From Takakia lepidozioides (Eukaryota > Plantae > Bryophyta), in the NCBI GenBank assembly GCA_030704615.1, contig CM060734.1:28954001-29018000 (forward strand): a stretch of DNA of 64,000 bases, in the 5' to 3' direction. Below the pieces are notes generated by a model, which did no database searches, was not told the DNA's origin, and saw only the letters and a list, made by a program, of their open reading frames with translations. Shown piece by piece: positions 8,858 through 60,559 of the stretch. The position numbers and the translations under genes are program-made. How positions within the stretch are numbered: the stretch's first letter is position 1; every line of letters begins with the position of its first letter.

Positions 8858-8859
8858 CT

Positions 8860-16510: not shown

Positions 16511-17016
16511 TCTTTCCAATTCCTCTCCTCTCCACCAAAACACTCCAACCAAGCTCCGCAGCGCAGATCAGAATGCCAAAAAAGACGGGTCTCACTCACT
16601 TGTGAACCTGTCAGTCGATCTTGTCAGATGCTCACGCAGCTGATTAGCTGCTTGTCCGAATCCAGTGACAATCGATGAGAGAGAGAGTGTCTGTCTGTCT
16701 ACGTTTGACGCAACACTCACTCTCCTTTTAGGGTTCTAAACCCTAGACCCTGTAGACCTTCTTATACGGATGGTTACAGAGTAACCAGGGTTAACTGATA
16801 ACGGACCGATTATGCCAGAGCGGCAAAAGACTCTATCGGCCGATTTCAAAGGCTGAAGGAGGGACGATAAACGGCGCGCGTCTTCTTACAAGACATCCGT
16901 TCACATGCAAAGAAAATACCTATGTCGGTAAACAGACATCCATCTGCCGGCCGACGCCGAGCCGGCATTGGTTACTCTGTCAGAGCATCTGCTGAAAATA
17001 TTCCTATACTGCCAGG

Positions 17017-18235: not shown

Positions 18236-18239
18236 ACTT

Positions 18240-24367: not shown

Positions 24368-24603
24368 TGGGCATAACAATGGTGAGGTTGACAAGTGATC
24401 CAAGGTCTTGCTAGTGGGGCTTCAATGCCATAGATACTCGACTGAAGATCATGGATTGCATGAAGGCGACTAACGATGGGGCTACTTTTGCACCCGACCT
24501 CTTGATCTATCGACTTCAGACATTGGGACTTGTGCGATTGAAGACCAAGCGATGATCTTATTAGGGAGGATACTTGGGTGTTAGAGGGACCTAATCACCA
24601 GCT

Positions 24604-25083
24604 AGGGGGGCGTTTGTGGCATAGCTTTCTAGGACTATATGCTAGGAAGTGTGGTTGGACAGCGATGTATGTTGTGGCACGATGCTTAGGTGCACGACAG
24701 CTGTCATGGTTTTGTTTGTGATTAGTTAGAAATAGTTATTTCTAGCTAATTAGGACTTTATACATTTATATTTATATTTCGTAGGCATTGGGACTTCATT
24801 TGGTTCCATGTGCCAAGTGAGGTGGCGAACCTCACTTAGGATGTGGAGATGTTTATCTCCACATGATGTGCAGGAAAGATCGTCTTCTTCTAGTCAAGCC
24901 TTCCAAGGCCTCTCTCGCCGCCATAGCTCTAGTATTTGAGATGGAGAGTGGGTGAGATCTGTATGGTGGAGTCCTTTAGCAAAGGTGCCATTGGCTTGAC
25001 TTATATAACGTGGGGTTTCACCTCTTTTCACCATTTCCGTATCATTGTAGCATAGCTTTCTAGGACTATATGCTAGGAAGTGT
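24604..25083 (+). repeat. PPT plus split terminal repeats Y(24615-24699)-gc-X(24702-25044)-t-Y'(25046-25083, truncated)
   Basis: AGGGGGG PPT; TGT.GCATAGCTTTCTAGGACTATATGCTAGGAAGTGT occurs twice; GACAGCTGTC palindrome at the Y/X junction. Confidence 0.85.
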
Positions 25084-25980
25084 CATTTTTCCAAAATCGC
25101 TAGAGGGGCCACATGTGAATTCTACCCAGCGCCCATGTGGCGGGAATGACGAGGTGACAAGGTTAGAGAAGTGGCTACATAACAGGTGACACAGTTTAAC
25201 GGATCCACATAGGCGAAATCAGGCTCATGATTCTCAACTACTGGCGCTTTTCCGGCGAATTCTCATTTTTTTACCCCCCATAATTCCTTTGTACAAGTAG
25301 CTGACCCATTTCCAGGTCGAAATCTGACCGGAAGAAAAAACAATATCATGGGTTCAACTATTCTCCTCAATAATTTGGGTTTTGAAGACTAACGTTGGAT
25401 CCAGCCAGATCAACGGCCAGACATAGGATCATCATGAAAATCACGGGGACAGAAAGAGAACAATCTAACCCGGAATTCAGATCCGGGTTTGACACCACTT
25501 TCCTTCACTCTGGATAACAATCCCTCATCCGAGCACATCCATCCCTGCCAAGCTTAACTTAATGCTGCATCAAAACACTCATATTGCAGTCAGCTTCATC
25601 ATGTGTATGTTGCCAATCCTTTCTTTTTTGGCATCCTGCCAAGGAAGCTCCCACACATATCTACCCACCCTAAATATTTGGGTCCTTGGCCCATCCTCTG
25701 ACACCTTCACACTCAGGTCCTCACTGCACACATAACTTAGCCTTCTTTAGCAGGATTGTTATTAGGGTTCGTGTGTCCTAGGGTGTGCTGCCTCAGATCT
25801 ACAGTGGTGGACTCCCAAGCTCCAGTAGGCCTTGAAATTAGTGCATTCGTGTATTATGGGAGTGACTGACTGGATTGAGAGCAATTGTTTTTATGTTCTT
25901 TATGCATGGCATAGAAAAGGCTGTCGTACACCATCTCTGAGGACTCACTGCACCACACCCAACAGCGGCTTCCTATTTTT

Positions 25981-35303: not shown

Positions 35304-36191
35304 TGTCGAACGGCTTTTACTCACCCATCCCTTCACTATCCGAGGTGGAAACTCCAAGATAGAAGAGTTGGATATCTCTAAGCACTCAGCCTGCTCAGTA
35401 CTATCAGTCATGACCTGCAGCTAGTGAATCATGGTTGTGCTTCCCATTTGTATTCCTTCTTGCCTTCATGTTATCAATTTACCTTATATGATACTGAAGC
35501 ATCAGATTGCTTCAGTATCTACTTAGTTCCAGTTAATCATGCATTCATTTACAACTTCACTCATGTCTCTCTACACAATGTGATTGTATCGAATAAGTAT
35601 CAGATTATGATTTATCAGGTATCAGGCCAATGCCATAGTGACTCTAATCTGCCCTACAGTATCACTACAGCTCTGCATGTAATAAGCATCTATTGTTCAT
35701 CTTTCCTCCTTCTCTGCGCTCTCCTTCTTGCTCTCCGCCCGATCTCCTCTTTTCATGACCAAGAAGCGCTCCCCGTGAAGTCTCCTTCTTTCCGTTGCCG
35801 CACTCCTTATCTGCCCGCAAGCTGTTCTAACCACCTAACTAACTAACCGTCATCCCTGAAGTAACACGTTCCCTCTGCAGATGTCGTTCCCTCACTATCG
35901 TTCCCTGTCAATGATAACTGTTCCCCATGTACTGTGACAGGCTGTGTCAAGCTGTGCCGAGCTGTGACTGGCTGTGTAAAGCTGTGCCGGGCTGTGACTG
36001 GTTGTGTCAGGTCGGGCTGTGCGAAGCTGTAGCGACTGTGACTGGCTGTGTAAAGCTGTGTCGAACTGTATAACCCCCCTAAAGCCTGCTACTGCCACCC
36101 CTAAAGCTCCTGTTGGTCTCAGTCTGCGCAAAAATTAAGGGTACCCCACAGATTTCGTAAAAGCGTCTAAGTCCCAAGCAGCCCTCTAATA
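35304..36191 (-). repeat. 3' LTR of the host gypsy; PPT (GAGAGGGGGAGGGG) immediately upstream at ~36195-36208
   Basis: Highly similar to 59606-60559; contains a short GCTGTG minisatellite. Confidence 0.93.
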
Positions 36192-39770: not shown

Positions 39771-40606
39771 TAGACAAACAAAAAGGCTTTGTTTGAAACA
39801 GCTGAAGAAAAGCTTGCAGGGCACAGAGCATGAAGGTATGGTTGGCACAGAATGGAACAGGTAAGTGCGTGTAAGCCTATGGGGCTTGCAAGTATCGAGT
39901 GAGAGAAAATGTACTCTCAATGCTTCCGTCCTTGCGCCACTGCGTGAGAAGTAAAGCGAGTGTGTAATCCGTTACATCTGCCATAGCTACAAAACTAGTG
40001 CTTTGATTGCCCCTTCCGTCGAGACCTTGGCTATTCAGAGCCACCCGACTCTTCCGCTCATAACACTTCATATTTCTTGTTCTTGTTTCTTGGAGGGAAC
40101 CACCTGCATGTAATTCGCACTCCTGATTGGCTGTGGACTGCTTAGGTAATTTCTTAATTCCACCCCCCTCCATGGACATTCCTGGCTGGAATGTCCAGTA
40201 GGATAGCACATGTGGCATAGGTTTCCATTTTCTATACTCGGAAAGGGTTCCGTTACCCTTACACTGAATGCATTAATGGGCCCACAATTAGTATTAGCTG
40301 CTGTACCGGGTAGGTATTTTGACGGCCCGATTTGTCCGTTTGCATGATGAAACCTTTTTTTGCAATTGATGCAGTGCGGTGTGCCACGCCTTAGTGGCCA
40401 CGTGTCCGTTTCTAAACATGCCCCCGACTTCCCCTCTCCGCGTGGCATATTCTCCAAGTTTGACTTCCAAACTTCCTCTTCACTCGATGGCCACTTTTCT
40501 AACGTTAATTCGCGTCCACCTGTCACTGACCCTATGGACTGTGTAATCTGTATGGGCTGTGTTGGGCTGTGACAGGCTGTGTGGCACTGTGGTGGGCTGT
40601 GATAGG

Positions 40607-43600
40607 CTATGTGACACTGTGATAGGCTGTGTCACGTTGTGATGGGCTGTGATAGGCTGTGTGACACTTGTACTTCCCGCCTTGGTCATACACGCTCGGC
40701 TTAACGACAAGTGCTCCATACTCCGTTGGTATCACTGGCGCAGCCCGTGACTGCTTTTGCGTTTCAACATGCAAATCGTGCTGCAATGGTTTGTCATGGA
40801 TACCACTGTACCCCTTCAACTTACTGGCATTGACTCTTCCCAGCATCTCTTTGTTAATGGTTTGTAACATGGCGGTGTTGTTATCATACATCTTCTGTAT
40901 GACATAAGGTCCTTTCCATGGTGATTTAAGCTTAGAAGCTTTAATCTTCCCCTTCTTCTGCAACCAGAAAACCAAATCTCCCGTCTTAAAAGTCTTTAAT
41001 TTGCCTTCATCAAACTGTTCCTTCCTCTTCATCTGAATTCTGGTCATGTTATCAGCTGCATCAGCACGTACTTCTTCCACATGGTATAATTCATGTTTCC
41101 TGACCTTAATTGAATCTTCCAATTCCATTCTCCTTCCCCATTCAGTTCTCATGGTAGGTAACAAGAATTCCACTGGAAGTAAAGCTTCCATACCATAAAC
41201 TAATTGGAATGGTGTATACTTAGTGGTGACTTTATATGAAGTCTTGTATGACCACAAAGCTGTCAGCAACTTTGTATCCCAATCCGTTCTGTTTGCATTG
41301 ACTATCTTAGCCAAGATAGTACATAGTATTTTGTTGGTAGCCTCTGCCTGCCCATTACCCTGTGGGTAATATGTTGTACTCTTCCTATGCACAATCATGA
41401 ACTCTTTAGTCAATAGTTCAATGGTCTCATTAATGAAGTGACTTCCCTGGTCACTGATAAATTCCAGGGGACAGCCAAATCGTGTAAGTATGTTCTCATA
41501 CAGGAACCTTGCTGTGGACTTGGCTGTGTTGTCCCTCAGAGCTTTAGCTTCCACCCACCGTAGTATAATCAGTGGTTGTAATTATGTACTTGTTTTGTGT
41601 ATTCCTGGCAGGTGGTCCAACAAAGTCTAGTCCTCATTTCTGAAATGGTTCAGTAGGCATCGTAGGATGCAAAGCCATCTTCCCAGATCTCTGCAAAGGT
41701 CCTAGCCTCTGACATTCATCACAACTCTGACAATACTTGTGTACATCTTTGAACAAAGTAGGCCACCAGTAACCTGCAAGTAGTATCTTCCTACTGGTAG
41801 TCTCTTCTCCAAAATGACCTCCAGCCACTCCTTTATGAACTTCCTCCAAAACTTTATTTACTTCATGGTGGTACAAGCATCGTTTAAGTACTTCCATCAG
41901 ATCCTAACGCTTATACATTGTCTGCCCCTACCATAATATAAGGTAAAAGCCTTGATAGCGATTCTCTTTTCTCTCTCTGCTCTTTAATCATAACTAGGTG
42001 GGCACTGACCATGATAAGGTATTATCTGATTGGCCACTGCCAATCTAACCATTCATCTGCACTTCCCTGCACCTCCATTGCAAATAAACTCGCATCAGTA
42101 ATTGGTCGTCTACTCTGTGGCGGGCTCACCTGTTGTTTAGGCGTGACAAATGATCTGCCACAATATGCAAACGGCAGGCTTGTAAACCAACTTCGAACTC
42201 AAACTCGTGCAAGATTATTAACCACCTTGCTATCCTTCCACTTATCAAAGGTTTGTTCACCAGATACATCAAAGCCTGGTGATCCACATAAAACATAAAC
42301 TTTCTCTTCCCAATAGGTAATGCCTGAATTTTTTTGACTGCATAAATCATTGCCAGTGCTTCTCTTTCAGTTGTGCTATAGTTCCTTTCAGCATTGTTCA
42401 TCAACCTGCTAGCATAGTACACATGTGAATCTATATTTCCTGTAATATTTTGGGCTAAACACGCTCCCAACGCTTCCCCTGAGGCAATCACAGTGAACAT
42501 GAATATCTACATGCCAGTGAGGGTTAATCAGCACAGGTGTAGTTGTTACCTGACAATGTAAGTTCCTCAAAAAGTCTGTTGACATTCAGCTGTCCATAGC
42601 AAACACTGCATCTTTCTTCAGAAGCTTGCTCAATGGTGCTGCTATCTGTGCATACCTTTTGACAATCTTCTGTAATAACTGGTTTGTCCAGGAATCTCCT
42701 TAGACTCTTAACATTACTGGTGGTGGAGAGGCTTTAATGGCCTCTGTCTTCCTGGGATCCACAAGAAGTCCCCTCTTACACACAATGTGTCCCAAAAGCA
42801 CCCTCTGAGTTCACACAAAAAGTACACACTTCTCTGGATTCAGGCCCAGACCTCATCTCCTGCATCTGGCCAAACATAACTCCAATTTATGCAAGTGCTC
42901 ATTCTTAGAGCTGTACACACTGAAATCATCCAGAACACGTGCATGAAATCATCCAGATACTCATGAAAATTCACTTATCACTCTCTGAAAGGTTGCTGGT
43001 GCATTACAAAGTCCAAAAGGCATGACTTTGTATGCATAAGCACCCCAGTCTGTGATGAAAGCTGTCTTTCCCTGGTCTTCTTTTGCCACTTGCACTTGAT
43101 TATAACCACTGAAGCCATCCATGAATGACATCTCATGGCCTGCCACAGTGTCCAATACCGCTTTTTGTGAATTGCAAGGGAAAAGGATCTTTCTTCGTGC
43201 AAGCATTCAACTTCTTATAGTTCACACACAACTCTCAGTTTACCATTCTTCTCGGGAACTATCACAATGGGTGACAACCAAGTTGTATACTCTATCGGTA
43301 TATAAACTTAGCGCCTCAGCCAACTTCTTTGATCTCTTCTCCAACCTTCTGTGCATAGTTGGGATTCATTCTGTACCTTGCATGTTTGATTGGTACTGAC
43401 CCTGGTTCCAGTTCAATCTTATGCTGACAGATCTCAGGTGGTATCCCTTTAGATCCTCTGTAGCTCCAAGCAAATACATCTCTGTATTTAATGAACAAAC
43501 TCCTAGCTTCCTCAAAGAATTCTGGCTCCAAATCGCCCCTACCTTCACCCATCCTCGGTTCCTCTCAGTTCCCACATTCACTTCTCTCACTGCTCATCAG

Positions 43601-43928
43601 CTGTGATTGTCCAAAAAGTCACCACTTCATCCTGTAAACTCATAGTGGCCGGTTCCTCTAGGATTTCCATTTCTCCCTCTCTTTCTTCATGAAATGTGGT
43701 GGGTAACTGCTTGTTTTCACACCTTCAATTGGTTTTGCGTCACTACACCACAGTAGATACATTTTAAACAACTTAGGCCTTCCAGCTGCATCTCTGCAAC
43801 CTGCTCCCACTCTAGGTGTGCAGAGAACAGGGTAGCTTCTTGCTCCTCATCAAGTCCTCCCCTCCAGTCATACTCCCTAACCCCTCGAGGTCTTCTCGTA
43901 GCAGGTAATCTACTAGATTTCTTAGTGG
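40607..43928 (-). pseudogene. Host gypsy pol (RT, RNase H, integrase) with many single-base frameshifts
   Basis: FMDGFSGYNQ..MPFGLCNAPATFQR; YYASR..NYSTTEREALA; EVHKGVAGGHFG..CQSCDEC; ISDQGSHF..GNGQAE. Confidence 0.93.
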
Positions 43929-44631
43929 TGTCGTGCGCATACATATCGCTACACAACTACATCGCTGTCCAAAACCACACAACACATGTGCACACCACAC
44001 ACTAGTATACCACTAGTCTACCACTAGTCCAGCCACTAGTCCAACCACTAGGCTACAACTAGTCAGTCACTAGGCTGCCACTACGCTGCCCACTATGGCA
44101 GTCACTAGTCCACACAATGATAAAGAAGAAGAATACAAGCACAAGCTCATGCGAGCTCACAAAGCTGAAGCATAAACTCATGCATATATAACCTCATCAC
44201 TCAAATACAAGTCAAGCCAAGTGCACCCCACGCCATGGGGAATCCACACTACGGCGCCATAGCTAGGCGCGGTGAGGCTCAACTCGAGAAAGATGAGCCT
44301 CCCGCGCTTGCCGTGAAGATAACCACTCCAGGGCCTAAATCTGCCTTGACCCCTGGATTGACACTTGGGCCAATCCCAAATGTCAATATGTAAAAGCTAG
44401 CTATTTCCTAGCTAGTTTCACACTAGTGGTAAAATAACTTGACAGCTGTCGTGCGCATATATCGCTACACAACTACATCGCTGTCCAAAACCACACAACA
44501 CATGTGCACACACACACTAGTATACCACTAGTCTACCACTAGTCCAGCCACTAGTCCAACCACTAGGCTACAACTAGTCAGTCACTAGGCTGCCACTATG
44601 CTGCCCACTATGGCAGTCACTAGTCCACACA
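43929..44631 (-). repeat. 3' terminal repeats: Y1 (44447-44631), X2 (44118-44444), Y2 (43929-44116); PPT AGGGGGG at 44636-44642
   Basis: The two Y copies differ at only a few positions; X2 matches 55799-56125; junction palindrome GACAGCTGTC at 44441-44450. Confidence 0.93.
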
Positions 44632-44891
44632 ATCGCCCCCCTAGCTGGTGCTTAGGTCCCTCTAAGTCCAGGTAGCCACAAGATGTGATAGTGACCATAG
44701 CCTCACTAAGTCCTCCACCACTATCCCTACTACACTCAAACTCGATAGATCAAGAGGCCGGGTGCAAGAGTTGCCCCATCGTTAGTCGCCGTCTTGCAAC
44801 CTGTGAACTTGAGCTTGGGATCTCATGTATTGACTCCTATGAGCTTGGCCTCCCATGTCTTGTTAGCTGCCTCCAGTCATGTCCACTGCCA

Positions 44892-45036
44892 CTATCCCAA
44901 GCAGTGTGGACACAACCAATCTCCGTCAGGAACCTTCTCAAGAGGTGGTGTCAAGCATCCCATATGCCAACCCCTTGAGCATCGATCACACACCAGCATG
45001 GTGGCTGCCCCTTTGGCAGACCCACAGAGCATGCAC
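44892..45036 (-). CDS. PHD finger (C4HC3) at the integrase C-terminus
   Basis: Manual translation: CMLCGSAKGAATMLVCDRCSRGWHMGCLTPPLEKVPDGDWLCPHCLG*; joined to INT via a one-base frameshift. Confidence 0.92.
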
Positions 45037-48000
45037 CTCAAACCTGCAGGTTACCACTGCCAAGTTTGGGTCAACTCTGCCATCGACATTGGGAAGGTGA
45101 CATGGCGCACAATTACGCACATGGTCTTTCCAAGTCATGCCATCCCGACCCTCTAAGATCAGGACCCCTGAGGGCAACACCTCTCGAACCCTCAGAATAA
45201 CACGCCCTGCAGTAACATCCAGAGTCGTAGGAGCAGTCTGCTGCAAATAAACATAGTCACCAGGGCTAAACCTCCGAACCCCAGGACGATATCCTCCACC
45301 ACGTATAGTGGCATACCTCAACGTATCACGGTGCTGTGCAATGGCAAGGTTCTCAAAAGCCATGGGCATGACTTTCTTGAACAACTCTGCACGCTGATCA
45401 CATGCACGTACCCACACGTCCGGATCGTCAAGGTTAAGGACTTGAGCAGTGTCCCTACGAATGGCTGCAGGCAAATCCGGCTCTCGGCCAAAGAGAAGGA
45501 AATATGGTGAGAAGGAGGCAAGTGATGCTTGTTTGCTGAACCTGTAGCCCATGGCTAACCAAGGAACCTGAAGATCCCAATCTCCTAGGTGTCCCTTCTG
45601 CAAGCCATACTTGCGCAAACCCCTCTTCACCGTCTGAACAACTCTCTCTGCTAAGCCATCGGCCTCAGGATGATCCCGAGAAGTGGTGCGGTGGTCTATC
45701 AAGGCTTTATCACACAAAGCCTGAAACTCCCCCAAGAACTCTCTCCCTTGTCCGTGAGTACCTCAGCTGGAGCACCAAATCGGCTAAGCACACGATCCAA
45801 ATGCATACGCAGCCCCCTCACTAGCCTTGTCAGGCAATGGAACCAACTCAATCCACTTGGAGAAGTGCTCCACCATCACCAACACATATCTGTGGTGGCG
45901 CATAGTCAGTGGCAACGGTCCTGCGAAGTCAAGACTCCACCTGTAGCCCAATCCCATGATAGGTAAAGGATGCAACTGTGGTGTAGGGGCGTTGAATGAA
46001 GCACGCACCCTGTCACACACCATGCACCTAGCCACAAACTGTTGCACCTCTGTATGCATACCACGCCACCAATACTGCCCCTGCAGTAAACTGTGAGTGC
46101 GTCGCACTCCAAAATGCCCCAACTCCTCATGGGCATGCCGCACTAACCGTGCACGCTGTGTGGGGTGAGGCACAATCCTCACCCGACCATCCTCCCACAC
46201 TCGAAGTAGGTGTATCCCCTCCCACTTGAACCTCTTGGCTCGTTGCAGGATCCGATCCCTCTCCCTGGCAGTCACAATGGCTGCCGTGTCTCCCGTGCGG
46301 AGGTAGTCCAACACAGCCGAATCCTCATGTATATCTCTGGCACCACCTAGCTCATCACTAGCCTCAGGGTCCTCAGACACTCCGTCTACAGTCATCCCTG
46401 TTGTAGGTCCAATCTGACCTCCCGATGCCAAGATACACAAAAATGCAGATGCGTGCCATCCCGGCACCATCTCCTCGTCCGTCTCACCATGCCACCGAGC
46501 TCCAGTGTCATCCTGCTGGCTCATGCATGGATTGCGACTCAATCCATCCGCATCCCGATTGACCAAACCCGGTCGATGCACAACCTGAAAGTCATACTCC
46601 TGGAGTATAAGTGCCCACCGTGCAAGCTTCCCCGTAAGCTTGTCTGACTCCATCAACCACTTGAGTGGCTGGTGATCCGTGACAAGGGTGAAAAGATTGC
46701 CGTATAGATAGCACCTGAAGTGTGCCACGGCCCACACTGCAGCTAAGCACTCTCCCTCATATGAGCTGTACTTAGCCTCTGCAGCGTTGTTCGAGCGGCT
46801 AGCGTAAGCCACTACGAACTCTCTTCCCTCATCATCCACCTGTGTGAGCACCGCTCCAAGCCCCAGCATGCTCCAATCCGTATGCAGCTGAAAGGGACGC
46901 CCCCTGATAGGTCGTCTCAAGATAGGCGCCGAGGTCAACCTCGCCTTGAGCTCTTGAAAAGCTCGTTCCTGCTCATCTTCCCACTGCCACTCCTGGTCCA
47001 CCTTGGTCAGCTTGGTTAGAGCCTTTGCAATGGTACTAAATCCCTTGACAAACCGTCTATAATAGTTTGCCAACCCCATGAAAGCTCGAACTCGGCTCAC
47101 ATCCGTGGGGCGTGGAATTTGTGCAATGGCCTCTACCTTAGTCTGCTGTACCCCCAATCCTCCAGGATATATCATGTGACCCAGATACTCAATCTGGTTG
47201 TGGAAAAACTTGCACTTCCCCGGATGCAACTTCAATCCGTGCGCTCTCAAGCGCTCCAATACCACCTGAAGGTGTCTCTCATGCTCCTCCATCGTAACAC
47301 TAAAGATGATGATGTCATCTATGTAGCACCGAGCAAAGTCCACCCCTGCTAGAATCCTATCCATGACTCTCTGAAACTCTGCAGGAGCATTCTTAAGCCC
47401 AAATGGTAAGAACCGCCACTGATATAGGCAATCCTTGCCGTGCTCATTGATCCCCCAGAATGCCGTCTTCTGCTTGTCCGCCTCCTTGATTGGCAACTGG
47501 TGATATCCGGATCGTAAATCCAAAGTGCTAAAGGCCTTAGCATGCCCGATGGCATCAAAGATCTCCTCTGGTGTTGGCATGGCATACTTATCGGACTTGG
47601 TCTGACGATTTACAGGCCGGTAATCACCGCACATACGTCTCTCCGTCCAATTGCCATAGACATCCTTCTTGGCTGGCATCACTGTGGCTGAAGCATACTC
47701 TCCACCAGAGAGCTCCACCAAACCTGCCTCCCAGAGATCTTGAGTCCTCATCTGAATCAAAGACCTCTCCATGTCACTGTATCTATAGGGTCTCCGAAAG
47801 ATTGGCGTGTCAGTGGCCAACTCAATACGGATCTCTTGACCCTTCAGTGCTCCCAAGTCCTTCAAACTGAAGGCAAAGCAATTCCTGTAAGCCCTCAGGA
47901 ACCGCCGTATACGTCGTCTCTCTCCTCCGGTGACAATGGGTCCAATGTCAGGCTCCCAATTGTCCTCCGTAACTACAACCTTAAGTCCAGTGGGCTTAGA

Positions 48001-48140
48001 GGTAGAGGACGCGTCCCGTGGTTGCTATGCTGCAACCTCTTGAGCAGTACTCCCTACCTGCTCAGTCAATGACAAGGCATCATCCTGCCCCATCATCTCA
48101 TCCTTGAGGACCTCCTCAACCGAGAAGAATCCCCAACCTC
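44986..48140 (-). CDS. Pol: RT (YIDD), RNase H, DDE integrase (HHCC, D..D..E)
   Basis: 693-aa ORF 45784-47865 plus 44986-45735; HEELGH..CMVC, WSLDFAGP, HPEADGLAER. Confidence 0.95.
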
Positions 48141-48319: not shown

Positions 48320-49270
48320 GCCAAGCTGATAATCCAGGTCAAGCAATTGAGATCCATTGCTTGCCCCAACACTTGACGACGTGATGCCTCAGAAAGAGAC
48401 GACACCGCCGTGGTACCAGTGGTAAAACCCATTGCCCGCTCACGCTCGTCAGCATTAGGCTCCACTAACTGCTGCAACTGAGCATCCCACAGGAGGCCAG
48501 GTCCACTATCCCGGAAAGCATGCGATCCTGGGAAGCTGAGCAGTGTAGGTAATGCTGCTCGTGGTTGACCCACCTTGTTGACCACTGCCAAAGGCGAACG
48601 GTCATCGTGTCTCACACGTTGAGACTGCCTCCCTGTGTCCAGAATGTTATCCACTGTGAGATGTGCTGGCCGCTGCACCCCATCAAATGCACGCTTGAGC
48701 AGTGCGGGTGCATCATGTTAGTCCACCATAGCCGTGGACGATGAGCCCGTGACCCCACTGTAGCTGCATCTAGCAACACTGCTGACCCAAGCCACGACCG
48801 GACTTGATGCACACTGGCCATCACCCTGGCCCGAGAATCGCCCATCAGTGGCACATTCTCCAAGATGTATGCTGGAGATACAGCTTGATGAAGCTGCAAG
48901 TGGCGCAAAACCCGCACCATCTCCCAAAACAGACCCGACCTCGAGTCTCGCAATCCATTGCCATGCCCGGCTGATGAATGCCCTTGGCAGGGCCAACCTG
49001 CCACTACCAGATCAATGGAGCCAACCCGCTCCAAATCCTGCGCCCCCAGCAACGAAATGTCTGCTGGCAAGGCCTGCTGATATCCACGAATTGCAGACAC
49101 CGACAACAACTCAGGGTACCGCTGCACAAACTGAGCAACATGGCGAAGTGAAACGCGTCGTGCAGTCTCATCCCTCTCCACATACAGGTAACGCCGAACT
49201 CGTACACCTGCCTGTAACACAGCAGCCAATCCGGTGCTGATCCCGCCAAACAAGTCCAGAAGACAAATGC
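48320..49270 (-). CDS. C5 cytosine DNA methyltransferase domain (DNMT3/DRM-like), one frameshift near 48705
   Basis: Motif I LDLFGGISTG, II YVE, III ADI, IV DLVVAGWPCQG, VI ILENV, VIII AHRPRLWW, IX ERERAMGF, X RRQVLGQAM, all in canonical order. Confidence 0.93.
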
Positions 49271-49499
49271 CTTCATCCGGAGACTGCCACACAATAGGTG
49301 TGGTGTCCAATGGAGACAATTGAGGTGGTCCTGGTGCAATCCCCACACTCTCCTCCTCTCCTGACGGTACAAAAGCCTCCACCCAGGCTTGTTGCACCCG
49401 TCGATCAGCATCCCGCTGCAAATCCTTGCTCGTGCCCCACAATGGAGTCTGAGCAACCATGGTAGGCAACTCCGCCATACCATACATGTCATCCTGCTC

Positions 49500-50554
49500 T
49501 CCCGAGGTGGTACATCCTCTGAATGAGCATTGCCCTCAAGCAACTCTCTAGGCCAACTCACTGCCGCTGTGAATGCTGCTAGTGTCGGCATCTTGCCTCG
49601 CTGGGCAACCGCAACTCCTCCTATGAACGTCACAGGGAGCTGCACACGCCGGCCCTCCCCTGACTGCCATGCAGGCCTATAGGAAGCTGACTCCTCCCAA
49701 AAATCCAGGGTGAAGCCCATGGGGTACAACACTGCCCCACCAACCAGGACATCGTATGAGACTGCGTCTGTCACAATGGCCTTGGCTCGCATCACTGAGC
49801 CATCTGTAGGGTGATCCGGCCGTAGTCTGATAGCCAACTCATGCCGTGTCATGCCCCGAGCCTGCTCCGATCCTCCCAGAGACGTCTGTATCTGGAAAGG
49901 ACAAGGCTCCATATCCGCCTCCGTGAGGCCCAAGCCTGCAATAGCAGCTCTGCCCAGCATCAGTGGCTGAGCTCCCGAGTCCAACAAGACTCGCAGTGGC
50001 CGGTACCTCTTGCCTGCCGGTCCACTCAAACAGAAAATGCCATCCTGGTTGTCTAACATGACAACTCCAGGTGTCACCATGGCGCGCTCAATGGCTGGCC
50101 TAGCTGGCAGCTCCATCAACCTGGCAGCTGCAGCTTGCCATGGCGCCGCCGTGGCAGTCTTGACCCTCAAATCCGAGGATCCCTCCGGCACTACACCTCC
50201 CACTATCTCCGCAGAAGATGAAGTAACCTCCCCACTCTCACAGAGTGTAGCTGCCAGCCTGAACACCTCAGCTGGTCTTACCCCCGGCGTCGCAATCATG
50301 GTAGCCGAGAACAATGGAGCCTGGCACACAGATGTGGCCGCTCCTAGCAGCACACTAGCTGCCGTAGCCTTGGCAACACTAGGTAGTGGTGCTACCCGTG
50401 TAGCTCTCCCCAATGGCATAGTAACCTCCGCCTCGGTAACAGTCGGGCGAGAACTAGGTGCCATGGATGGCGTCGACACTGTCTCCGCCAATGTGAATGA
50501 CTGAGGAAGCCTAGCCTGACGGCTTGCCTCCCCACGCTGTGGATCCAACTCCAC
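49500..50554 (-). CDS. Retroviral-type aspartic protease region
   Basis: RVLLDSGAQ...YDVLVG. Confidence 0.85.
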
Positions 50555-50559: not shown

Positions 50560-52160
50560 CACCTCGTGGCTCAGGAAACTCGTGCTGCTCCTCGAGTCAC
50601 GGCTGCAGCAGACTCCACCTGCACTAGTGGTAGTGCTGCTCCACACATGAATCCCATGCCTCCCATATCTCCTCCCTCAGGAGCAGGAGGTGGACCATCC
50701 GGCCTTAGAGCCGGTACCACCTGAGCTGTAGCCATGGCAGCAGCGAGCCTCTGCTCTAGCTGCTGAAGCCGGTTGGCCATGCCTTGGTCAACACCCTGAC
50801 CTCCGCGTCCTTGGCCACGTTGAGCTTGCCCTTGGCCTGCACCTCGTGGCTGGCCACCTCGTCCTCTCTGGGCTGCTCCACCTCGCCCCCGGCCACCATT
50901 GTTCCCTTGGAACTGGCCTGGGCGCAACTCAGGATGCAAACCATAACACTGGCCTCTCCATGCCCGTGTTTTGCCACAATGCCCACACTGTAACTGTGCA
51001 GGCTGTGCATGTGCCGACCCTTTGCCTCCCTCTGGACAATCCTTCTTGACATGGGGTCCTCCACATGTCCAGCACACCACATCCGCCCGTTGTTGGCCAG
51101 CAAATGAAGGGAGAGACCCCTGCATTGAGGTCCTCTCTGCCCTTCCCTGCTTCACCTGAGCCCCCTTGTTGCCTTGAGCACGTTGAGGTAGTGGTTGGCT
51201 AGGAGCACCACTACCCCGTGGTGTCTCCTTAGCAAATCCCACCATGACCACTTCGTTCCTCCACCATGTTGAGCTCTATCCGCTCTGCCAGCAAAAACAC
51301 ATTTGCTAAGGTGGGTTGGGCCGCTTGTAGGAGAGTTGCATCCCGCACCCTTCTCCTCAGCTCCTTGTCCAATATCCCATACCAGAATTGGACTGCCTGA
51401 GCTTCCGTAACCCCTTGGGTTACATTTATCAAGCGCCTCATGCGAGTGAAGCCTCCCTCAAGCTCGGTCGGCTTCCGTTGGAACTCTTGCAAGCTCCGCA
51501 ACTTCTCTGTCCTCACCCCTTGGTAGTTCCCTCTCAACTCTTCGAAGAACTCCACAACAGGGTTGAAGGCAGGCACGGGTGCTAGTGCTGGTGCGGTAGT
51601 GGCTTGGGTGGACGTCGTAGCTACTGTACCACCAGTCCCACTGCTGCTTGCTGAAGCTGCCGGTGCAGCGGCAGGTGTAGCCACTGCCCTCGTGGCTCTA
51701 GTGCCCCTAGTGATGGAGACATAGTCGGGTGACCAGTACATCCTCCACTCCTCGATCTCAACCTCATGCCCCCGCCTGAACTCATGGTAATCATCCATAG
51801 GCGGCCCCTCAAGGTGCTGAAACAGCCCCTTCCATGCCATGAAAGGCGTAAATAGTTGTGGATTGCGCATTTGCTGCAAATCACACCAACTATCAAACTC
51901 TTGGATAAAATCATCCAACTCGATGGTGCCCACCGCCCCAGAGTACCTTCGTGGCCCCTTGGTAGCTCCATACATCTCCTCCATTGTGTCCCACAACAAT
52001 GGCAAAGAAAACAACTTGCACCCGGTATGAGTCCTCCTGATTCAATCCGAATCAGAACCTTCCGTGGAAGACACAGGAGGTGAAGGTGGCCTAAACCGCA
52101 CACCTCGTCTCGTGTACCCACTAGTATCGCTAGTGCTCGAACCGGCACTGTCCCCAGCAA
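50560..52160 (-). CDS. Gag with two CCHC zinc knuckles and an RGG-rich segment (frameshifted pieces)
   Basis: ELDDFIQEFDSWC..LQEFQRKP; CWTCGGPHVKKDC; CGHCGK(H)GHGEASC. Confidence 0.85.
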
Positions 52161-52914
52161 CTAGTGGCACCTCCGTGTTGACACTCAACCGGTCATGAAC
52201 ATGTCCCTAACCCCCTCTCACAAGGTAACCGGGTAGAGAACCTGTTGCGGCTTATGGTTTGGAATACTAAGTTCCTAACATAGCCTACACCTGTACCTGC
52301 ATCCACCGCAAGCACTCCTATGGTTGGCTGGTCATCACCTCCAACCTCACCACAGGAGAAACAATGATGGTCTGGCTGGTCATCACCCCAGCCTCACCAT
52401 CGACAGCATGCTCTAGGACTGGCCGGTGATCAAATCCGGACCAATCACCTATAAAAACAAGCGCCCACACAAAACTAGCATGGCGCACAGTCAAGCATGC
52501 AGGTATGGAGGGGATCCAAACACAAGAAATCAGAACGACAACTCCCCCACACCAAAAACAACTCCACGGTGTTGCTCCTGCAAGGACACCCAGCCCAAAC
52601 CCGGACTGACTCTTGCCTCCACCTACGGAAAGGTCTTGGCCTAATGAGAGGGTGGAAACTACGAGGAAGAGAAGCTAAAGCAATGCCTAACCCCAGCATG
52701 CTCTCATCCCAACACTCTGCCTCTCCTCTCTATCCTCACTTGCATGACCATGGGAATATCATGAAGATACTCCTCAAACCGCCCTCCACGAGCTTCAAAA
52801 TTCGGCCTTCCAGACCACATGCCAGTCCTTAGGCAGTCCACCAGTGCCTCCACGAGTCAGCACAGGCCGTCCACAGGTCAACACGGGCCACCACAGACCA
52901 GCACAGGCCCACAC

Positions 52915-54262
52915 AGCTCACTGGTCACAGCCCGTCACAGCCCCATAGGCCTCAGGGCACAGCCTGTCACAGCCCCGCACAGCCCGTCACAGCCCCAAAG
53001 GCCACTGGACACAGCCTGTCACAGCCTGACACAGCCCGTCACAGCCCCACAGGGCACAGGGCACACCCTGTCACAGCCCATCACAGCCCATCACAGCCGG
53101 TCACAGCTTGCCACAGCCTGTCACAGCCTGTCACAGCCCCACAGGCCACTGGGCACAGCCTGTCACAGCCCGTCACAGCCCGTCACAGCTCGCCACAGCC
53201 TGACACAGCCCGTCACAGCCCCACAGGGCACAGGGCACAGCCTGTCACAGCCCCTCACAGCCCGTCACAGCCCCAAAGGCCTCAGGCACGGCCTGTCACA
53301 GCCCGTCACAGCCCCAAAGGCCACTGGGCACAGCCTGTCACAGCCTCGCACAGCCCGTCACAGCCCAAAGGCCACTGGGCACAGCCTGTCACAGCCTGAC
53401 ACAGCCCGTCACAGCCCCACAGGGCACAGGGCACACCCTGTCACAGCCCATCACAGCCGGTCACAGCTTGCCACAGCCTGTCACAGCCCGTCACAGCCCG
53501 TCACAGCTCGCCACAGCCTGACACAGCCCGTCACAGCCCCACAGGGCACAGGGCACAGCCTGTCACAGCCCCTCACAGCCCGTCACAGCCCCAAAGGCCT
53601 CAGGCACGGCCTGTCATAGCCCATCACAGCCCCAAAGGCCACTGGGCACAGCCTGTCACAGCCTGACACAGCCCGTCACAGCCCCACAGGGCACAGGGCA
53701 CAGCCTGTCACAGCCCATCACAGCCCATCACAGCCTGTCACAGCTTGCCACAGCCTGTCACAGCCCGTCACAGCCCCACAGGCCACTGGGCACAGCCTGT
53801 CACAGCTCGCCACAGCCCGTCACAGCCCCACAGCCTCAGGGCACAGCCTGTCACAGCCCCGCACAGCCCGTCACAGCTCGCCACAGCCTGACACAGCCCG
53901 TCACAGCCCCACAGGGCACAGGGCACAGCATGTCACAGCCCCTCACCAGCCCGTCACAGCCCCAAAGGCCTCAGGCACAGCCTGTCACAGCCGTCACAGC
54001 CCCACAGGGCACAGGGCACAGCCTGTCACAGCCCATCACAGCCCATCACAGCTTGTCACAGCCCGTCACAGCCCACAGGCCACTGGGCACAGCCTGTCAC
54101 AGCCCGTCACAGCCCCACAGGCCTCAGGGCACAGCCCGTCACAGCCCGTCACAGCCCCAAAGGCCACTGGCACAGCCCGTCACAGCCTGACACAGCTCAT
54201 CACAGCCTGTCACAGCTTGCCACAGCCCGTCACAGCTTGCCACAGCCTGTCACAGCCCCACA
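52915..54262. repeat. ~1.35-kb minisatellite of ~10-bp units (GCCTGTCACA / GCCCGTCACA) with higher-order blocks, in the 5' leader of the DNMT element
   Basis: CACAGC recurs with ~10-bp period; larger blocks are reiterated. Confidence 0.97.
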
Positions 54263-55798
54263 CATGGCCGCTCTGGCAGTTTAGCCATTTCTCCAAGGGG
54301 TTTAGCCACGCCAAGCTAGGGTTTGTGTCTCTTGGACTCTAGGCTTCTTTCCACCGAGCTATGGTGGCTGTGAGGAAATCAGCAAGGTATCCTTGCTCTT
54401 TCGGCTCCCACACACCACCATAGTAGCCCTAAGCCATGAGGTGGTTGCCACAAACCAAGCCTTCTTTCTCACTTAGCCTCCCCAAACACGCCACTAAACT
54501 CAATGGCAAACAACCAAGCCCTGCTGGTTCCCAGCCCTTGTGAGCACTCATTCAAGCACTCCCCTCATTGGCCATAGCATCTGTCTTAGAGCCTATTCCA
54601 GCCCTCTACAACCTGTTGCTTCAAGAGTTGCGCTCCTTCAAGCTTGAAGTTGAAACCCCAACTCACATAGGCCCTACAAGTGCTGTTCTTTCACTCCAAG
54701 TGGAAACCAGCCCTAGACCTTCCGTTCTAGCTCTCTAAGGCTTGAAAACAAGAGCCTCAATGGGCTGAAGGCATGCTCCACACATGCCCCACTCTCACCA
54801 TAAGAGAATCAGCTCCTTTGCTTCATTTCTTGCACCCACAAACCTGAAAAATACAAGCTTCAGCAGGCTGAAAGCATGCTCTACATGCCCTACAGGGAAA
54901 CCAGCCCCTTCCTTCATTCCTTGCACTCCCACACCTAAAAGTGCAAGCCTTCACCAGGCTGATAGCATGCTCCACACATGCATTGCCCTCACATAAGGGA
55001 AGTTAGCCCTTCCCACTTCCTTGCTTGCCCTCCAAGCTTGAAGATGGAAGCTTCAATGAGTTGAATACATGCTCCACACATGCAACCTCTTCACACAAGA
55101 GATATCAGCCCCCTATCTTGGCTCCTTGGCTCCTTGATGCTCTCTAAGACAAGACTAAGCACTCCATAGCCTTTGCCAAGCTCCTGAAACCCTAAGGCTT
55201 ACATTTCCAGCCACAAGACACTTCTCTTGTGGTGCAAGAGCTCTTCTTCCAAGCTCTGAAACCCTAGGTGCACATTCCATGGCCTTGCCGCACCTCTTAG
55301 CTCCTGTTCCAGCCCTGCTCTTGCCATGACAAGAGCCCTCTCAATGCTGAAGCTCGAGATTGAAACCCAATCTCACCATACTCCACAAAGTGCACTGATT
55401 TGCCCCAAGCCAAATCAGCCCTTTCGCTTGGTCTTGCAATCCTTCACACAATGACAGCTCGCATTCCCAAGTCCAGTTCTCAGCTTTGCCACCAAAGCCA
55501 CTATAACCTGCTCTTGACTGGTCCTCTTCCCAATCGTGCTTGCTCATGCATGTACACAATCTGGAACCATCAAGGTGCTCTGGAATTACCTGCAGCATGG
55601 TGCTTTCATCTCTGAAGCTGAAGATCGAATGCCAAGGTCTACCACCTCGTAACCCACATCGCCTCCGCTTCTAACAACTAAGAGCTCCACGGTGCTCCTT
55701 GCATAACAACTTGGTTTCTCTCATTCTCAAGCAAAAACCACAAGTGCTACAACTAACTCGTATCTGGCACTCACAGATACGAGCTGATCTTTCTCGAG

Positions 55799-56125
55799 TG
55801 ATAAAGAAGAAGAATACAAGCACAAGCTCATGCGAGCTCACAAAGCTGAAGCATAAACTCATGCATATATAACCTCATCACTCAAATACAAGTCAAGCCA
55901 AGTGCACCCCACGCCATGGGGAATCCACACTACGGCGCCATAGCTAGGCGCGGTGAGGCTCAACTCGAGAAAGATGAGCCTCCCGCGCTTGCCGTGAAGA
56001 TAACCACTCCAGGGCCTAAATCTGCCTTGACCCCTGGATTGACACTTGGGCCAATCCCAAATGTCAATATGTAAAAGATAGCTATTTCCTAGCTAGTTTC
56101 ACACTAGTGGTAAAATAACTTGACA
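55799..56125 (-). repeat. 5' terminal repeat X1 (327 bp) of the DNMT element
   Basis: Essentially identical to 44118-44444 (one substitution noticed by eye); no Y copy at this end. Confidence 0.93.
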
Positions 56126-56199
56126 GTGGTAATTTGTATCTTGTGCATCCCATCATGCACAGTTAGTAACTGGGAATTCCAGTCATGGAATACCTTGGC

Positions 56200-58998
56200 C
56201 TATTTCAGCCACGGACGTCCCAACAATAAGGAGTAAGCTTCCATGACTTCATCCATTTTCAACACAGTTACTGTGATCATAAAGATCATTTTTTGAATCT
56301 GTATCTTAACTCCTCTTATCAATCCCAATGGCTGTACACTTCTTTGATCTGCCATTGTTACTGTAAATGGGGCTGGTTTCATGATACTTAGACCAAGCTT
56401 CTGCCTTAATTGGTCTGTCATGATATTCACTCCAGAGCCTCCATCTATCAGTACATCAGTTAGTTCTGTGCTTCCAATTCTCAATTGGATTACTGGCATA
56501 GAATCATCAAAGTCTATGACTGTTTCTCGCCCTTCCGGCTTCACATTATAACTGGTCACCTTGATGTTCAGGTCTGTATTCCATGTCACATGGGCAATTC
56601 GATTGATTGCTTGATACAGCCTGTGTCTACAATAAGGTGCCACAGCCAATAGCTGTCCAATGGTAATCTCCGCTTTGGACTGGCATATTACTTCAGCCAA
56701 AGTTCCTTCATTACTCTGCATGTCTGCAACTTCTTTCTTCCCTTCATCCTCACTCCCTTCCTCTTCTCTTTCAGAATCAGAGGAATCTGCCATAGGAATA
56801 TCAGTACTCTTCTGCATTTCCCTTATGGTATCTGCCACTTCCTTGTGCAGTTCCTTCTCATCTCTCCAAGCCTCATCATCTTCAAGCACATCACTCCCAT
56901 CTCCATTATCATCACCTTCCTCATCTACTGGAGGTATTATTTTGGCTTTGCTTCTCGTTACTATCATTGTACTTACTTCTGGTACAACACATGGCCTAAC
57001 CATGTGAGCTGCCACCACTGGCCCCTCATCCACAGGAGCTCTCATCTCATTCTGGTGTCTGATCCAGAATGGACAGGCTGCCTTGCGATATCCTGCCTGA
57101 TTACAATAGTAACACAGTTCTTCCCCACTAGGTCCTCGCCCCTCGTCTGTTCTGGGATTGTTTCTGTAGTCCTGATTCCCTGGCTGGTAATTCCCCCTTG
57201 GATTACCCTGATAGTTACCTCTGGAATTTCCTCGGTAATTCCCTCTTGGATTACCTCTCCCTTCCATGCCATTGTTATAACCACCAGGCCTACCATAGTG
57301 GTCCTGATCACTGTTTCTTCTTGGCTGGGGCTGCACTTGATGCACCCTTACTTGCCTAGGTTCTCTAGCTGCTGTCCTTCTGTTGTAGTAACAATTCTCA
57401 GTAGAATGATTATCCATTTTACAGATAGTACAGTGTTTCTCCTTCATGTGGCATTCAGTGGTGGTATGGCCTTCATTCTGGCATTTTGCACACCAAACAC
57501 CCTTCCTCCAATGTGTTGCAGCCTCTGTGGCATACTTCTTCAAGATTTCTTCTAATCTTTTCTCATAGTTATTCCTCTTTAACTTCTCCTTCCTCTTACT
57601 TTTCCTTTTCAGCTCTTGCTCTTCTTCCTCATCTGACTCATCCTCAGAGTCCTCATCATCCATTTTCTCTCTTCTGAGCATTCCCAATTGCTCAATTATG
57701 TTCGCTGTTTCAAATGCCTTCTCCACTGTATTATGGGGTAACATATCCACTTTCTTTTGCAACTCTGGTCTTAGTCCACTCACAAACCAAGTCTTCTGTA
57801 AACCTGGTGCTGGTACAACAACCAGCTTTTTCATCATCAATTCCATCTTTTCCATATACTCCTCAACAGTTTCATGCTTCTTTTGCTTTAACTGTTGTAA
57901 ACTTCCATACACTTCATCCTCAGTTTTACTTGTCCTGAACCTATTTCGGAATGTTGTATTCAAGCCATTCCAGGTTAGGAAATGATTATCAGGGAATCTT
58001 GCATACCATTCACTTGCTTTCTTTATAAGTGAACAAGGAAACAGTCTCATCTTGGCATCATCGTCATTCTCATTGTTCACAATACACATGTGCTCAAATT
58101 GGCTAATGTGTACATCAGGATCCCATTTTCCTGAATATATTGGAAAAGGTGGTTTTGCCCGTGTTGGTTGTAACGCCATCTGTGGCCCTACCTTCTGCCC
58201 ATTGACAAATTTTGGCCCCCTTGCTGGTGCTGGTCCTTGAGGACCTGTTGTAGTTGTGGTGGAACTTCCACCAAGTGCTGGCCCCTGAGCACTCCCTGCT
58301 ACTGGCCCCACTATATTCACAGTATTCCCAGCTCCAGTTGCACTACTTCCCACACTCCATGTCCCCCCAGAGCCAGATCCAGGCTGCCCGCCTGATCCCC
58401 CTTCGTTGGCTTGTGATCCAAGTGCTCCACTTGATCCAGGTCCAACGGGTTGGGATGTCCTGGTTGTAGTCTCAACCTCAGCTGTTGGGTCTACTTCTTC
58501 ATACTCTTCCTCTTCCAATTTCTTCTCTCTGTTTTCATCCTCCAAGTTCTGCCCTTGGGTTTCTTCTTCACTCATATAACTCAACTGCAATGGTGTTGGA
58601 GAGTCTGAACTCTCCGTTGGCTCTGCCACATCCTCTCCTCCTTCTTCATCTTCCGTCTCAGAAACTGGAGTTCCTGCTTTTGGTGTTCCATGCCAACTCT
58701 TATCAAATCTTTCTGTCAAATCTTTTATCCAAGGATGTACCTTAGATCTTTCATCTCGTGGTTGATCTTCTTCCTGTACCAATTCCCTTAATCTTTCTTG
58801 CAAAGAAAAAGAAGGAGTGGCATCCAACTCTAGTTCTTCCGGTATGGGTGATGTACTCTCTGATCTTAATGGTGTGAGAGGTCCAGATGATTCCCCTATG
58901 TCTATTCCTCTCTCCCAAAGATATGGATAATTAGCTTTCAGATAACTTTCTCTTTTTGCTGAATATCTCTGGAGTCTAGCTTCTCTTTCATCACTCAT
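56200..58998 (-). CDS. Host gypsy Gag-protease (932 aa to an in-frame TAG)
   Basis: Retrotrans_gag-like core (DPDVHISQFE..LFPCSL..WY), CCHC-type knuckles (CAKCQNEGHTTTEC, CTICKMDNHSTENC), protease VLIDGGS..LLGRPWL. Confidence 0.93.
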   Translation of the reverse strand: MSDEREARLQRYSAKRESYLKANYPYLWERGIDIGESSGPLTPLRSESTSPIPEELELDATPSFSLQERLRELVQEEDQPRDERSKVHPWIKDLTERFDKSWHGTPKAGTPVSETEDEEGGEDVAEPTESSDSPTPLQLSYMSEEETQGQNLEDENREKKLEEEEYEEVDPTAEVETTTRTSQPVGPGSSGALGSQANEGGSGGQPGSGSGGTWSVGSSATGAGNTVNIVGPVAGSAQGPALGGSSTTTTTGPQGPAPARGPKFVNGQKVGPQMALQPTRAKPPFPIYSGKWDPDVHISQFEHMCIVNNENDDDAKMRLFPCSLIKKASEWYARFPDNHFLTWNGLNTTFRNRFRTSKTEDEVYGSLQQLKQKKHETVEEYMEKMELMMKKLVVVPAPGLQKTWFVSGLRPELQKKVDMLPHNTVEKAFETANIIEQLGMLRREKMDDEDSEDESDEEEEQELKRKSKRKEKLKRNNYEKRLEEILKKYATEAATHWRKGVWCAKCQNEGHTTTECHMKEKHCTICKMDNHSTENCYYNRRTAAREPRQVRVHQVQPQPRRNSDQDHYGRPGGYNNGMEGRGNPRGNYRGNSRGNYQGNPRGNYQPGNQDYRNNPRTDEGRGPSGEELCYYCNQAGYRKAACPFWIRHQNEMRAPVDEGPVVAAHMVRPCVVPEVSTMIVTRSKAKIIPPVDEEGDDNGDGSDVLEDDEAWRDEKELHKEVADTIREMQKSTDIPMADSSDSEREEEGSEDEGKKEVADMQSNEGTLAEVICQSKAEITIGQLLAVAPYCRHRLYQAINRIAHVTWNTDLNIKVTSYNVKPEGRETVIDFDDSMPVIQLRIGSTELTDVLIDGGSGVNIMTDQLRQKLGLSIMKPAPFTVTMADQRSVQPLGLIRGVKIQIQKMIFMITVTVLKMDEVMEAYSLLLGRPWLK

Positions 58999-59605: not shown

Positions 59606-60559
59606 TGTCGAACGGCTTTTACTCACCCATCCCTTCGCTATCCGAGGTGGAAACGCCAAGATAGAAGAGTTGGATATCTCTAAGCACTCAGCCCGCTCAG
59701 TACTATCAGTCATGACCTGCAGCTAGTGAATCATGGTTGTGCTTCCCATTTGTATTCCTTCTTGCCTTCATGTTATCAATTTACCTTATCTGATACTGAA
59801 GCATCAGATTGCTTCAGTATCTACTTAGTTCCAGTTAATCATGCATTCATTTCACAGCTTCACTCATGTCTCTCTACACAGTGTGATTGTATCGAATAAA
59901 TATCAGATTATGATTTATCAGGTATCAGGCCAATGCCATGGTAACTCTAATCTACCCTACAGTATCACTACAGCTCTGCATGTAATAAGCATCTACTGTT
60001 CATCTTTCCTCCTTCTCTGCGCTCTCCTTCTTGCTCTCCGCCTGATCTCCTCTTTTCATGACCAAGAAGCGCTCCCCGTGAAGTCCCCTTCTTTCCGTTG
60101 CCGCTCTCCTTATCTACCCGCAAGCTGTTCTAACCACCTAACTAACTAACTGTCATCCCTGAAGTAACACGTTCCCTCTGCAGATGTCGTTCCCTCACAG
60201 TCGTTCCCTGTCAATGATAACTGTTCCCCATGTACTGTGACAGGCTGTGTCAAGCTGTGCCGAGCTGTGACTGGCTGTGTAAAGCTGTGTCGGGCTGTGA
60301 TTGGCTGTGCGAAGCTGTGGCGGGCTGTGACTGGCTGTGTAAAGCTGTGTCGGGCTGTGACTGACTGTGTTAGGCTGTGTCGGGCTGTGCAAAGCTGTAG
60401 CGGCTGTGACTGGCTGTGTAAAACTGTGTCGGGCTATATAACCCCCCTAAAGCCTGCTGCTGCCACCCCTAAAGCTCCTGTTGGTCTCAGTCTGCGCAAA
60501 AATTAAGGGTACCCCACAGATTTCGTAAAAGCTTCTAAGTCCCAAGCAGCCCTCTAACA
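59606..60559 (-). repeat. 5' LTR of the host gypsy
   Basis: TG...CA ends; longer than the 3' LTR because it has more GCTGTG units. Confidence 0.93.

Follow-up and report, generated by a model that had tools for sequence, protein, structure and literature searches.

Within the window, by which we mean the whole stretch of 64,000 nt that was analysed, a reading of the sequence alone had drawn attention to a site which directly adjoins a repeat, lacks a TGG start and is complementary to a stretch inside that repeat. This raises the question whether the locus harbors a retroelement that primes reverse transcription with the 5′ end of its own RNA, as fission yeast Tf1 does, and how such an element would be organized and inserted. 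Our analysis places the site in a Ty3/Gypsy element with a permuted LTR (A-body-B-A-B), and it is probable that it serves as the primer-binding site (PBS) for Tf1-like self-priming in this element and that replication follows the cycle proposed below.

Layout of the element and its relatives

The element spans positions 56125-43929 on the minus strand (12,197 nt), begins with TG, ends with CA and is flanked by a 4-bp target site duplication (TSD). Another Ty3/Gypsy element carries it within its pol region, and empty-site joints in contigs of three runs skip 12,201 nt. Its parts follow each other in the order A1 - PBS - body - PPT - B1 - GC - A2 - B2, with these features outside the priming region:

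56126-56129, minus strand: left 4-bp TSD (CCAC), in the pol region of the host element
55799-56125, minus strand: repeat A1, 327 nt, begins with TGTCA; predicted promoter, R and U5
52890-54300, minus strand: array of 10-bp units, long 5′ leader
50574-52041, minus strand: gag-like region, frameshifted, no Pfam match, 67-79% identical to related loci
49607-50086, minus strand: aspartic-protease-like region with LLDSGA motif, no Pfam match
48636-49280, minus strand: C5 cytosine DNA methyltransferase (DNMT) domain (PF00145, E 2.5e-13), between protease and RT
44989-48024, minus strand: RT, RNase H and DDE integrase, with a frameshift inside the integrase core
44895-45050, minus strand: PHD finger (PF00628, E 1.5e-12) following the integrase
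44633-44642, minus strand: polypurine tract (PPT), flush with the start of B1
44447-44632, minus strand: repeat B1, 186 nt, ends with CACGACA
44441-44450, no strand assigned: palindromic junction GACA-GC-TGTC with 2-nt spacer, predicted integrase cut site
44118-44444, minus strand: repeat A2, with the second copy of the 12-mer described below at 44294-44283
43929-44117, minus strand: repeat B2, flush with the end of A2, terminates the element with GACA
43925-43928, minus strand: right 4-bp TSD (CCAC)
21700-25085, plus strand: diverged relative, 3′ part, with a PPT-B-GC-A-B end; pol 77-82% identical at the DNA level

A1 and A2 are identical except for one of 327 sites, and B1 agrees with B2 in 97.9% of 190 columns. 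The 327-nt repeat, which the sequence-only reading had taken for the terminal repeat, is thus real but does not represent a whole LTR: it is the A half only, and B flanks its 3′ copy. At B1|A2 both end motifs of the element stand head to head and form the palindrome GACA-GC-TGTC, and at the A2|B2 seam the PBS edge of A meets the PPT edge of B. The diverged relative at 21700-25085 lacks the 5′ end and most of B2.

The coding order is gag-PR-DNMT-RT-RH-IN-PHD, with frames broken in several places. The order PR-RT-RH-IN and the Ty3-type RT are those of Ty3/Gypsy elements, the best solved relative of pol is Ty3 Gag-Pol (E 1.3e-143), and TG..CA ends, a short TSD, a PBS and a PPT are likewise present; the one complete LTR that Ty3/Gypsy elements carry at each end is, however, replaced by the layout A-body-B-A-B. 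None of the 59 frames of at least 70 aa matches a tyrosine recombinase or chromodomain family. Membership in the DIRS order was rejected, because no recombinase is found in these 59 frames and a DDE integrase and a TSD are present.

Relatives were collected by a scan of metagenome contigs covering 9 of the 64 parts of the collection, which gave 79 loci corresponding to the best 80 of 555 confirmed; L019 and L034 were removed as duplicates of L018 and L033. Viral contigs contributed four distant loci, none of them in the clade of the element. The same-clade loci comprise the window family (family 1) and families 2, 3 and 4 and share the order protease-DNMT-RT-integrase-PHD, and the RTs of the compared families are 42-78% identical to that of the window element. 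In an RT-RNase H tree (FastTree, 111 rows of at least 200 aa, best single match per locus, with no named Tf1 or Tcn1 row among them) they form one clade with proteins from Tetraselmis, Klebsormidium, Closterium and liverworts (support 0.958). By RT, the closest named relatives come from liverworts (76%), followed by Klebsormidium and Closterium, which points to a non-seed land plant as the likely host; the K. nitens RT proteins that group with the window element are three database entries and may not be the published copies.

A1 followed by a PBS is available from 15 copies, namely the window element, three of family 2 and 11 of family 3, and in none of these 15 does B stand upstream of the PBS-adjacent A. 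All six complete copies possess a 4-bp TSD, one of them with a mismatch. At the 3′ end, 15 copies read B-A-B, two read B-A up to the contig end or into unresolved sequence, two (L022 and L048) show B alone followed by flank, and six have no recognisable end. The junction motif CACGACA-NN-TGTCA is common to the families, with the spacer being GC in 8 of 15 copies, one transition away from GC in six and AA in one. The PPT is flush with B1 in four families, and the A2|B2 seam, judged by eye with family 4 left out, is flush in 9 of 13 copies and carries indels in the other four. A one-off rearrangement was rejected as its origin, given that four families share the layout and have TSDs.

Two side observations concern the ends. 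L022 (at about 8190) and L048 (at about 2255), both loci without 5′ ends, terminate at B1 without A2-B2, and insertions of 1-LTR circles, B1-B2 recombinants or the missing alternative permutation are candidate explanations. Moreover, the CG in the B end motif (window 44453-44447) is conserved in all families and could, speculatively, be a target of the element's own methyltransferase.

Pairing between the primer-binding site and repeat A

The pairing involves the following features:

55994-56003, minus strand: TTATCT motif where relatives have TATAAA, non-canonical as a TATA box
55964-55975, minus strand: predicted self-primer, the first ~12 nt of an RNA with a putative start at 55975
55787-55798, minus strand: primer-binding site, complement of 55975-55964, flush with the end of A1
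55757-55783, minus strand: 10-bp hairpin after the PBS, loop-closing pair variable on both sides

The site consists of the 12-mer CTCGAGAAAGAT at 55798-55787 (minus strand), which starts right after the last base of A1 (55799), and its partner inside A1 is ATCTTTCTCGAG at 55975-55964 (minus strand). The exact 12-nt complementarity between both, on which the sequence-only reading had been built, was reproduced, and a perfect complement of at least 12 nt whose start falls within the site's first 4 nt is found in only 2 of 20,000 dinucleotide shuffles of A1. The absence of a TGG start, likewise borne out by the sequence, excludes the mature 3′ end of a tRNA as the primer. Also present are the extension to 17 positions (55979-55963 / 55783-55799), with one C.C mismatch at 55786/55976 and then a G.U, and the hairpin that had been noticed 3′ of the site, a 10-bp stem (55783-55774 / 55766-55757) with a loop of 7 nt.

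Contigs from three DNA runs and two samples (X1 and X2 derive from the same sample) inform on variation among copies. At 55786 the base that would pair accounts for 74% (X1), 80% (X2) and 57% (X6) of the summed contig depth, so that the mismatch at 55786/55976 represents a minority state of the copies. Neither 12-mer carries a variant above 0.1% among the variants listed for the DNA runs, and adjoining positions do vary. The loop-closing pair of the PBS-side hairpin shows variants of 15% and 13% on its two sides (X1, unphased), and two further changes in the stem, at ~13% each, have no listed partner change. Contig depth over A is about twice that on the PBS side, which fits two A per element and is not a measure of copy number.

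The covariation of both 12-mers across families, which the sequence-only reading had named as a check of its claim, bears the pairing out. The PBS sequence is family-specific, and in three families each PBS pairs at a constant place in its own repeat, with compensatory changes between families. When scored over 12 nt, 12 of the 15 A1 copies reach 10.5-12 of 12 pairs, a value matched by 0-6 of 150 shuffles, and L014 (1-nt slip), L024 and L035 fail the test as scored. By contrast, the primer of one family forms merely 4-6 of 12 pairs with the PBS of another (8 copies compared). A MAFFT alignment of the window element and family 2, on which the structure was placed by hand, contains 13 pairs with 100% of 52 cells paired, compared to 35-46% in slid controls, and 6 of these 13 primer-PBS pairs are changed on both sides between the window family and family 2, all six double changes falling on one branch. 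The duplex energy is better than that of 200 of 200 shuffles in families 1 and 2 and weak in the AU-rich old copies of family 3, for which 5-96 of 200 shuffles are as good.

Three local peculiarities accompany the sites. In L024 (2421-2437) and L035 (1087-1103), both of family 3, 17 nt from the end of A1 are duplicated ahead of the PBS, which shifts the site. In family 2, the primer region and the PBS region are each an almost perfect inverted repeat of 10 bp around a 3-nt loop (L002:1826-1860 and 2018-2040). In families 1 and 3, unlike family 2, the first 6 nt of the PBS are palindromic (55798-55793; L012:4584-4589), a possible dimer contact.

Source of the primer

A TATA-like hexamer is located 30-33 nt upstream of the partner site in 12 of the 15 copies and is visible in all ten A2 copies printed. 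In families 2 and 3 a start predicted from its spacing coincides with the partner's first base, and the placement of a TATA box 30-33 nt upstream of the partner in two families makes Tf1-like self-priming likely. The window family shows TTATCT, without a canonical TATA, at the expected place, and TATATATG is found farther downstream in the window A1 (55871-55864). The partner site begins at a pyrimidine-purine step, toward which plant start sites tend. When folded from 55975, the RNA has its 5′ end paired with the PBS in the best as well as in the centroid structure, and the RNA 5′ end likewise pairs with the PBS in the fold of L002, whereas the primer-PBS stem is absent if the whole of A1 is folded from its first base. 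Run X12, which we guess to be RNA, yielded seven diverged contigs, and a transcription start cannot be read from contigs.

Given upstream transcript, as in A2, an 8-bp hairpin (55982-55975 / 55962-55955) encloses the primer site in its loop. In families 1 and 2 the 5′ arm of this enclosing hairpin precedes the predicted start. The hairpin would therefore be expected in the A2 copy alone, where it may prevent the site from competing. Pairing with the PBS continues upstream beyond the predicted start, by 4-5 nt in family 1 and by ~8 nt in family 2, so the true start may sit a few bases earlier; a primer with its first base at 55975 has no need of these additional pairs. One might also take them as a trace of self-priming by a different stretch of RNA, that is by the A2 copy or by a longer 5′ leader starting well upstream of 55975, and RNase H cutting of the duplex would in both cases still leave a 3′ end at the A boundary. 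In favor of such sources are the identical 12-mer in A2 (44294-44283), the pairing of families 1 and 2 beyond the predicted start and the missing canonical TATA of family 1. Family 3, however, has no upstream extension and places its TATA box 31-33 nt before the site, upstream sequence shuts the site in a hairpin in the A2 RNA of families 1 and 2, and a cut in A2 would be expected to detach the acceptor of the first strand transfer. We thus consider it unlikely that the primer stems from either of these sources.

A different reading is that the pairing builds a structural long-range stem, involved in packaging, dimer formation or translation control, and that a host tRNA fragment or another RNA acts as the primer. 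The 6-nt palindrome at the start of the site in families 1 and 3 is of a kind that dimer signals can have, but family 2 does without it. A structural role also fits poorly with three families having three sites that each follow their own repeat, with a pairing that begins at the very base defining the end of A, as the 3′ end of a primer fixes it, and with a site that lacks a TGG start. No Rfam match was obtained for 55500-56200 at E 1, and ARAGORN called no tRNA in the window and a single doubtful one in the 83 loci plus window. This reading appears very improbable to us.

Priming by the 5′ end of the element's own RNA is hence the reading we prefer, and we hold it to be highly probable. Its Tf1-like character, as originally suggested from the sequence, is supported by the covariation, the position at the repeat boundary and the TATA spacing in two families, while the locus does not contain a two-LTR element of the Tf1 type; that suggestion was incomplete because the repeats are permuted and a PHD finger replaces the chromodomain.

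Proposed replication cycle and comparison to known systems

In the cycle that we propose, transcription would begin at 55975 or a few bases before, the 5′ end of the RNA would anneal to the PBS, and RNase H cutting after about base 12 would free the primer, as in Tf1. Ordinary strand transfers would then produce a linear cDNA bounded by the PPT edge and the PBS edge, and from these two edges a normal BA-body-BA molecule is predicted. Joining of the cDNA ends would create the A2|B2 seam, and the integrase would nick after CA on both strands of the B-GC-A palindrome in the left LTR, which would free both processed ends with 2-nt overhangs for an insertion with 4-bp duplication. A circular permutation of BA-body-BA that was opened at B|A of the left LTR and lost the 2-nt spacer would give the inserted form. 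The ends could be joined before integration, as a 2-LTR circle, or after it by host repair, and both fit the data. That an internal integrase cut is combined with end joining seems probable. A symmetric circle would also be expected to give rise to A-B-A-body-B copies, none of which occurs among 15 5′ ends; their absence means that the asymmetry needs an extra assumption, and we speculate that the left junction may be used because it is the first to become double-stranded.

With regard to integration only, the element might alternatively follow a route like that of PAT and Ngaro, in which the RNA extends through B2, B2 is copied from RNA, the internal B-A junction splints both ends into a circle and the integrase cuts this circle. 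Such a route directly accounts for A-body-B-A-B as the sole form seen, the layout is shared with PAT, Ngaro and VIPER (PMC6681497), and a B2 longer than B1, as in L008 and L014 whose B1 lacks one 15-nt unit present in their own B2, would be in line with it. It leaves, however, no role for a PPT flush with B1 and a PBS flush with A1, and the indels at the A2|B2 seam in 4 of 13 copies are as in joined ends. Also, in five of seven family-3 copies B1 groups with its own B2 and thus by copy rather than by position (within-copy 0.088, between copies 0.114-0.128); family 2 shows no copy-specific B signal. In old copies the divergence of the A pair (7.7-10.9%) and of the B pair (5.6-13.4%) is similar within a copy. 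Altogether, we regard the PAT/Ngaro-like route as rather unlikely and retain integrase cutting inside the LTR together with joining of the cDNA ends.

Self-priming as such is already known from Tf1, Tcn1 and TAR, and it is the combination with a permuted LTR that appears to be new. In Tf1 the RNA's initial 11 bases pair with the PBS and RNase H cuts between bases 11 and 12 (PMC7175516), for Tj1 self-priming has been proposed (PMC4600332), and in plants it has been predicted for 12% of elements, mainly Tcn1 and TAR (PMC6317226). According to these accounts, fission yeast Tf1/Tf2 and Tj1, the Tcn1 chromoviruses of plants and TAR of the Copia group likewise possess a PBS that directly adjoins the LTR and complements the predicted 5′ end of the RNA, and the primer length is similar, with 11 nt in Tf1 and 12-13 nt in the window element. 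These elements are described with two full LTRs and with integrase ends at the termini of the cDNA, in contrast to the permuted LTR and the internal motifs found here, and Tcn1 carries a chromodomain where the window element carries a PHD finger after the integrase. When compared to the Tf1/sushi group, the window element thus shares a PBS complementary to its own LTR and not to the CCA end of a tRNA, but no chromodomain follows its integrase among the frames of at least 70 aa and the PHD region that were scanned. The priming step likely works like that of Tf1, whereas the element itself belongs with the Gypsy-DNMT3 elements.

Of the latter, KnitGypsy-Dnmt3 from Klebsormidium nitens has Gypsy domains, a DNMT of the Dnmt3 type and A-coding-B-A-B repeats like those of DIRS elements (de Mendoza et al. 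2018, PMC5890265). Its DNMT inside a Gypsy pol, its repeat order and its integrase agree with the window element; a PHD finger (0 occurrences of the term) and liverwort or fern copies do not feature in the available text of that account, which also gives no priming or integration mechanism. Streptophyte Gypsy-DNMT3 elements are mentioned in a 2026 preprint (10.64898/2026.05.21.726589), without a priming or integration route in its available text. Split direct repeats in the order A1-body-B1-A2-B2, as in the window element, are also described for PAT, Ngaro and VIPER (PMC6681497), which employ a tyrosine recombinase and differ in this from the window element with its DDE integrase, TG..CA ends, 4-bp TSD, PBS and PPT. 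Overall, we found no account of priming or integration in the clade in a literature of which our coverage is incomplete, so an earlier description is possible.

REM1 is a green-lineage Gypsy element with a PHD finger. Gypsy-7a_cRei from Chlamydomonas reinhardtii is likewise a PHD-bearing Gypsy of the green lineage whose LTR is drawn in subparts, but its description lists left and right LTRs, unlike the permuted layout of the window element (PMC9940879).

The integrase of foamy virus is reported to cut an LTR-LTR junction that is palindromic (PMC1180852). In that case the cDNA ends create the palindrome as they form the seam, whereas the palindrome of the window element is templated within the LTR and does not coincide with the seam. 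We lean slightly toward the view that the green-lineage Ty3/Gypsy clade follows a cycle not described so far, which would consist of self-priming, integrase sites moved inside the LTR and an obligatory joining of the cDNA ends, in a 2-LTR circle or an equivalent form. At circle junctions of the IS3/IS30 type, a DDE enzyme cuts the palindrome of two head-to-head end motifs. 2-LTR circles are usually regarded as dead ends, and the head-to-head junction as a normal substrate of the integrase is disputed for retroviruses. If the proposed cycle is true, a retroviral-type integrase would act like a circle-junction transposase, and the clade would present a natural case in which the integrase must use a head-to-head junction, with a defined substrate of 10 bp. 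Self-priming would then have arisen outside the chromoviruses and would extend to a PHD-bearing lineage, and the DIRS-like repeats of Gypsy-DNMT3 elements would be provided with a priming route and a full model. For annotation, the clade is a warning that finders relying on two LTRs mis-delimit such elements, which are abundant in genomes of non-seed plants.

Several further observations were made in the surroundings of the element. The LTRs of the host Ty3/Gypsy element (35304-36063 and 59606-60352) are 95% alike, and its RT falls far outside the clade. A common 10-bp tandem unit occurs in the leader of the window element (52890-54300) and in LTRs and interior of the unrelated host Gypsy (35932-36060, 40548-40661 and 60235-60435). 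A further LTR element with LTRs that are 87% alike lies at 8128-13868, with an inverted related repeat copy at 18237-19011. Among these retroelements, an unbroken frame of 349 aa on the minus strand (15518-16567) contains CoA_binding and Ligase_CoA domains of the succinyl-CoA ligase alpha type and is possibly a retrocopy or a transferred gene.
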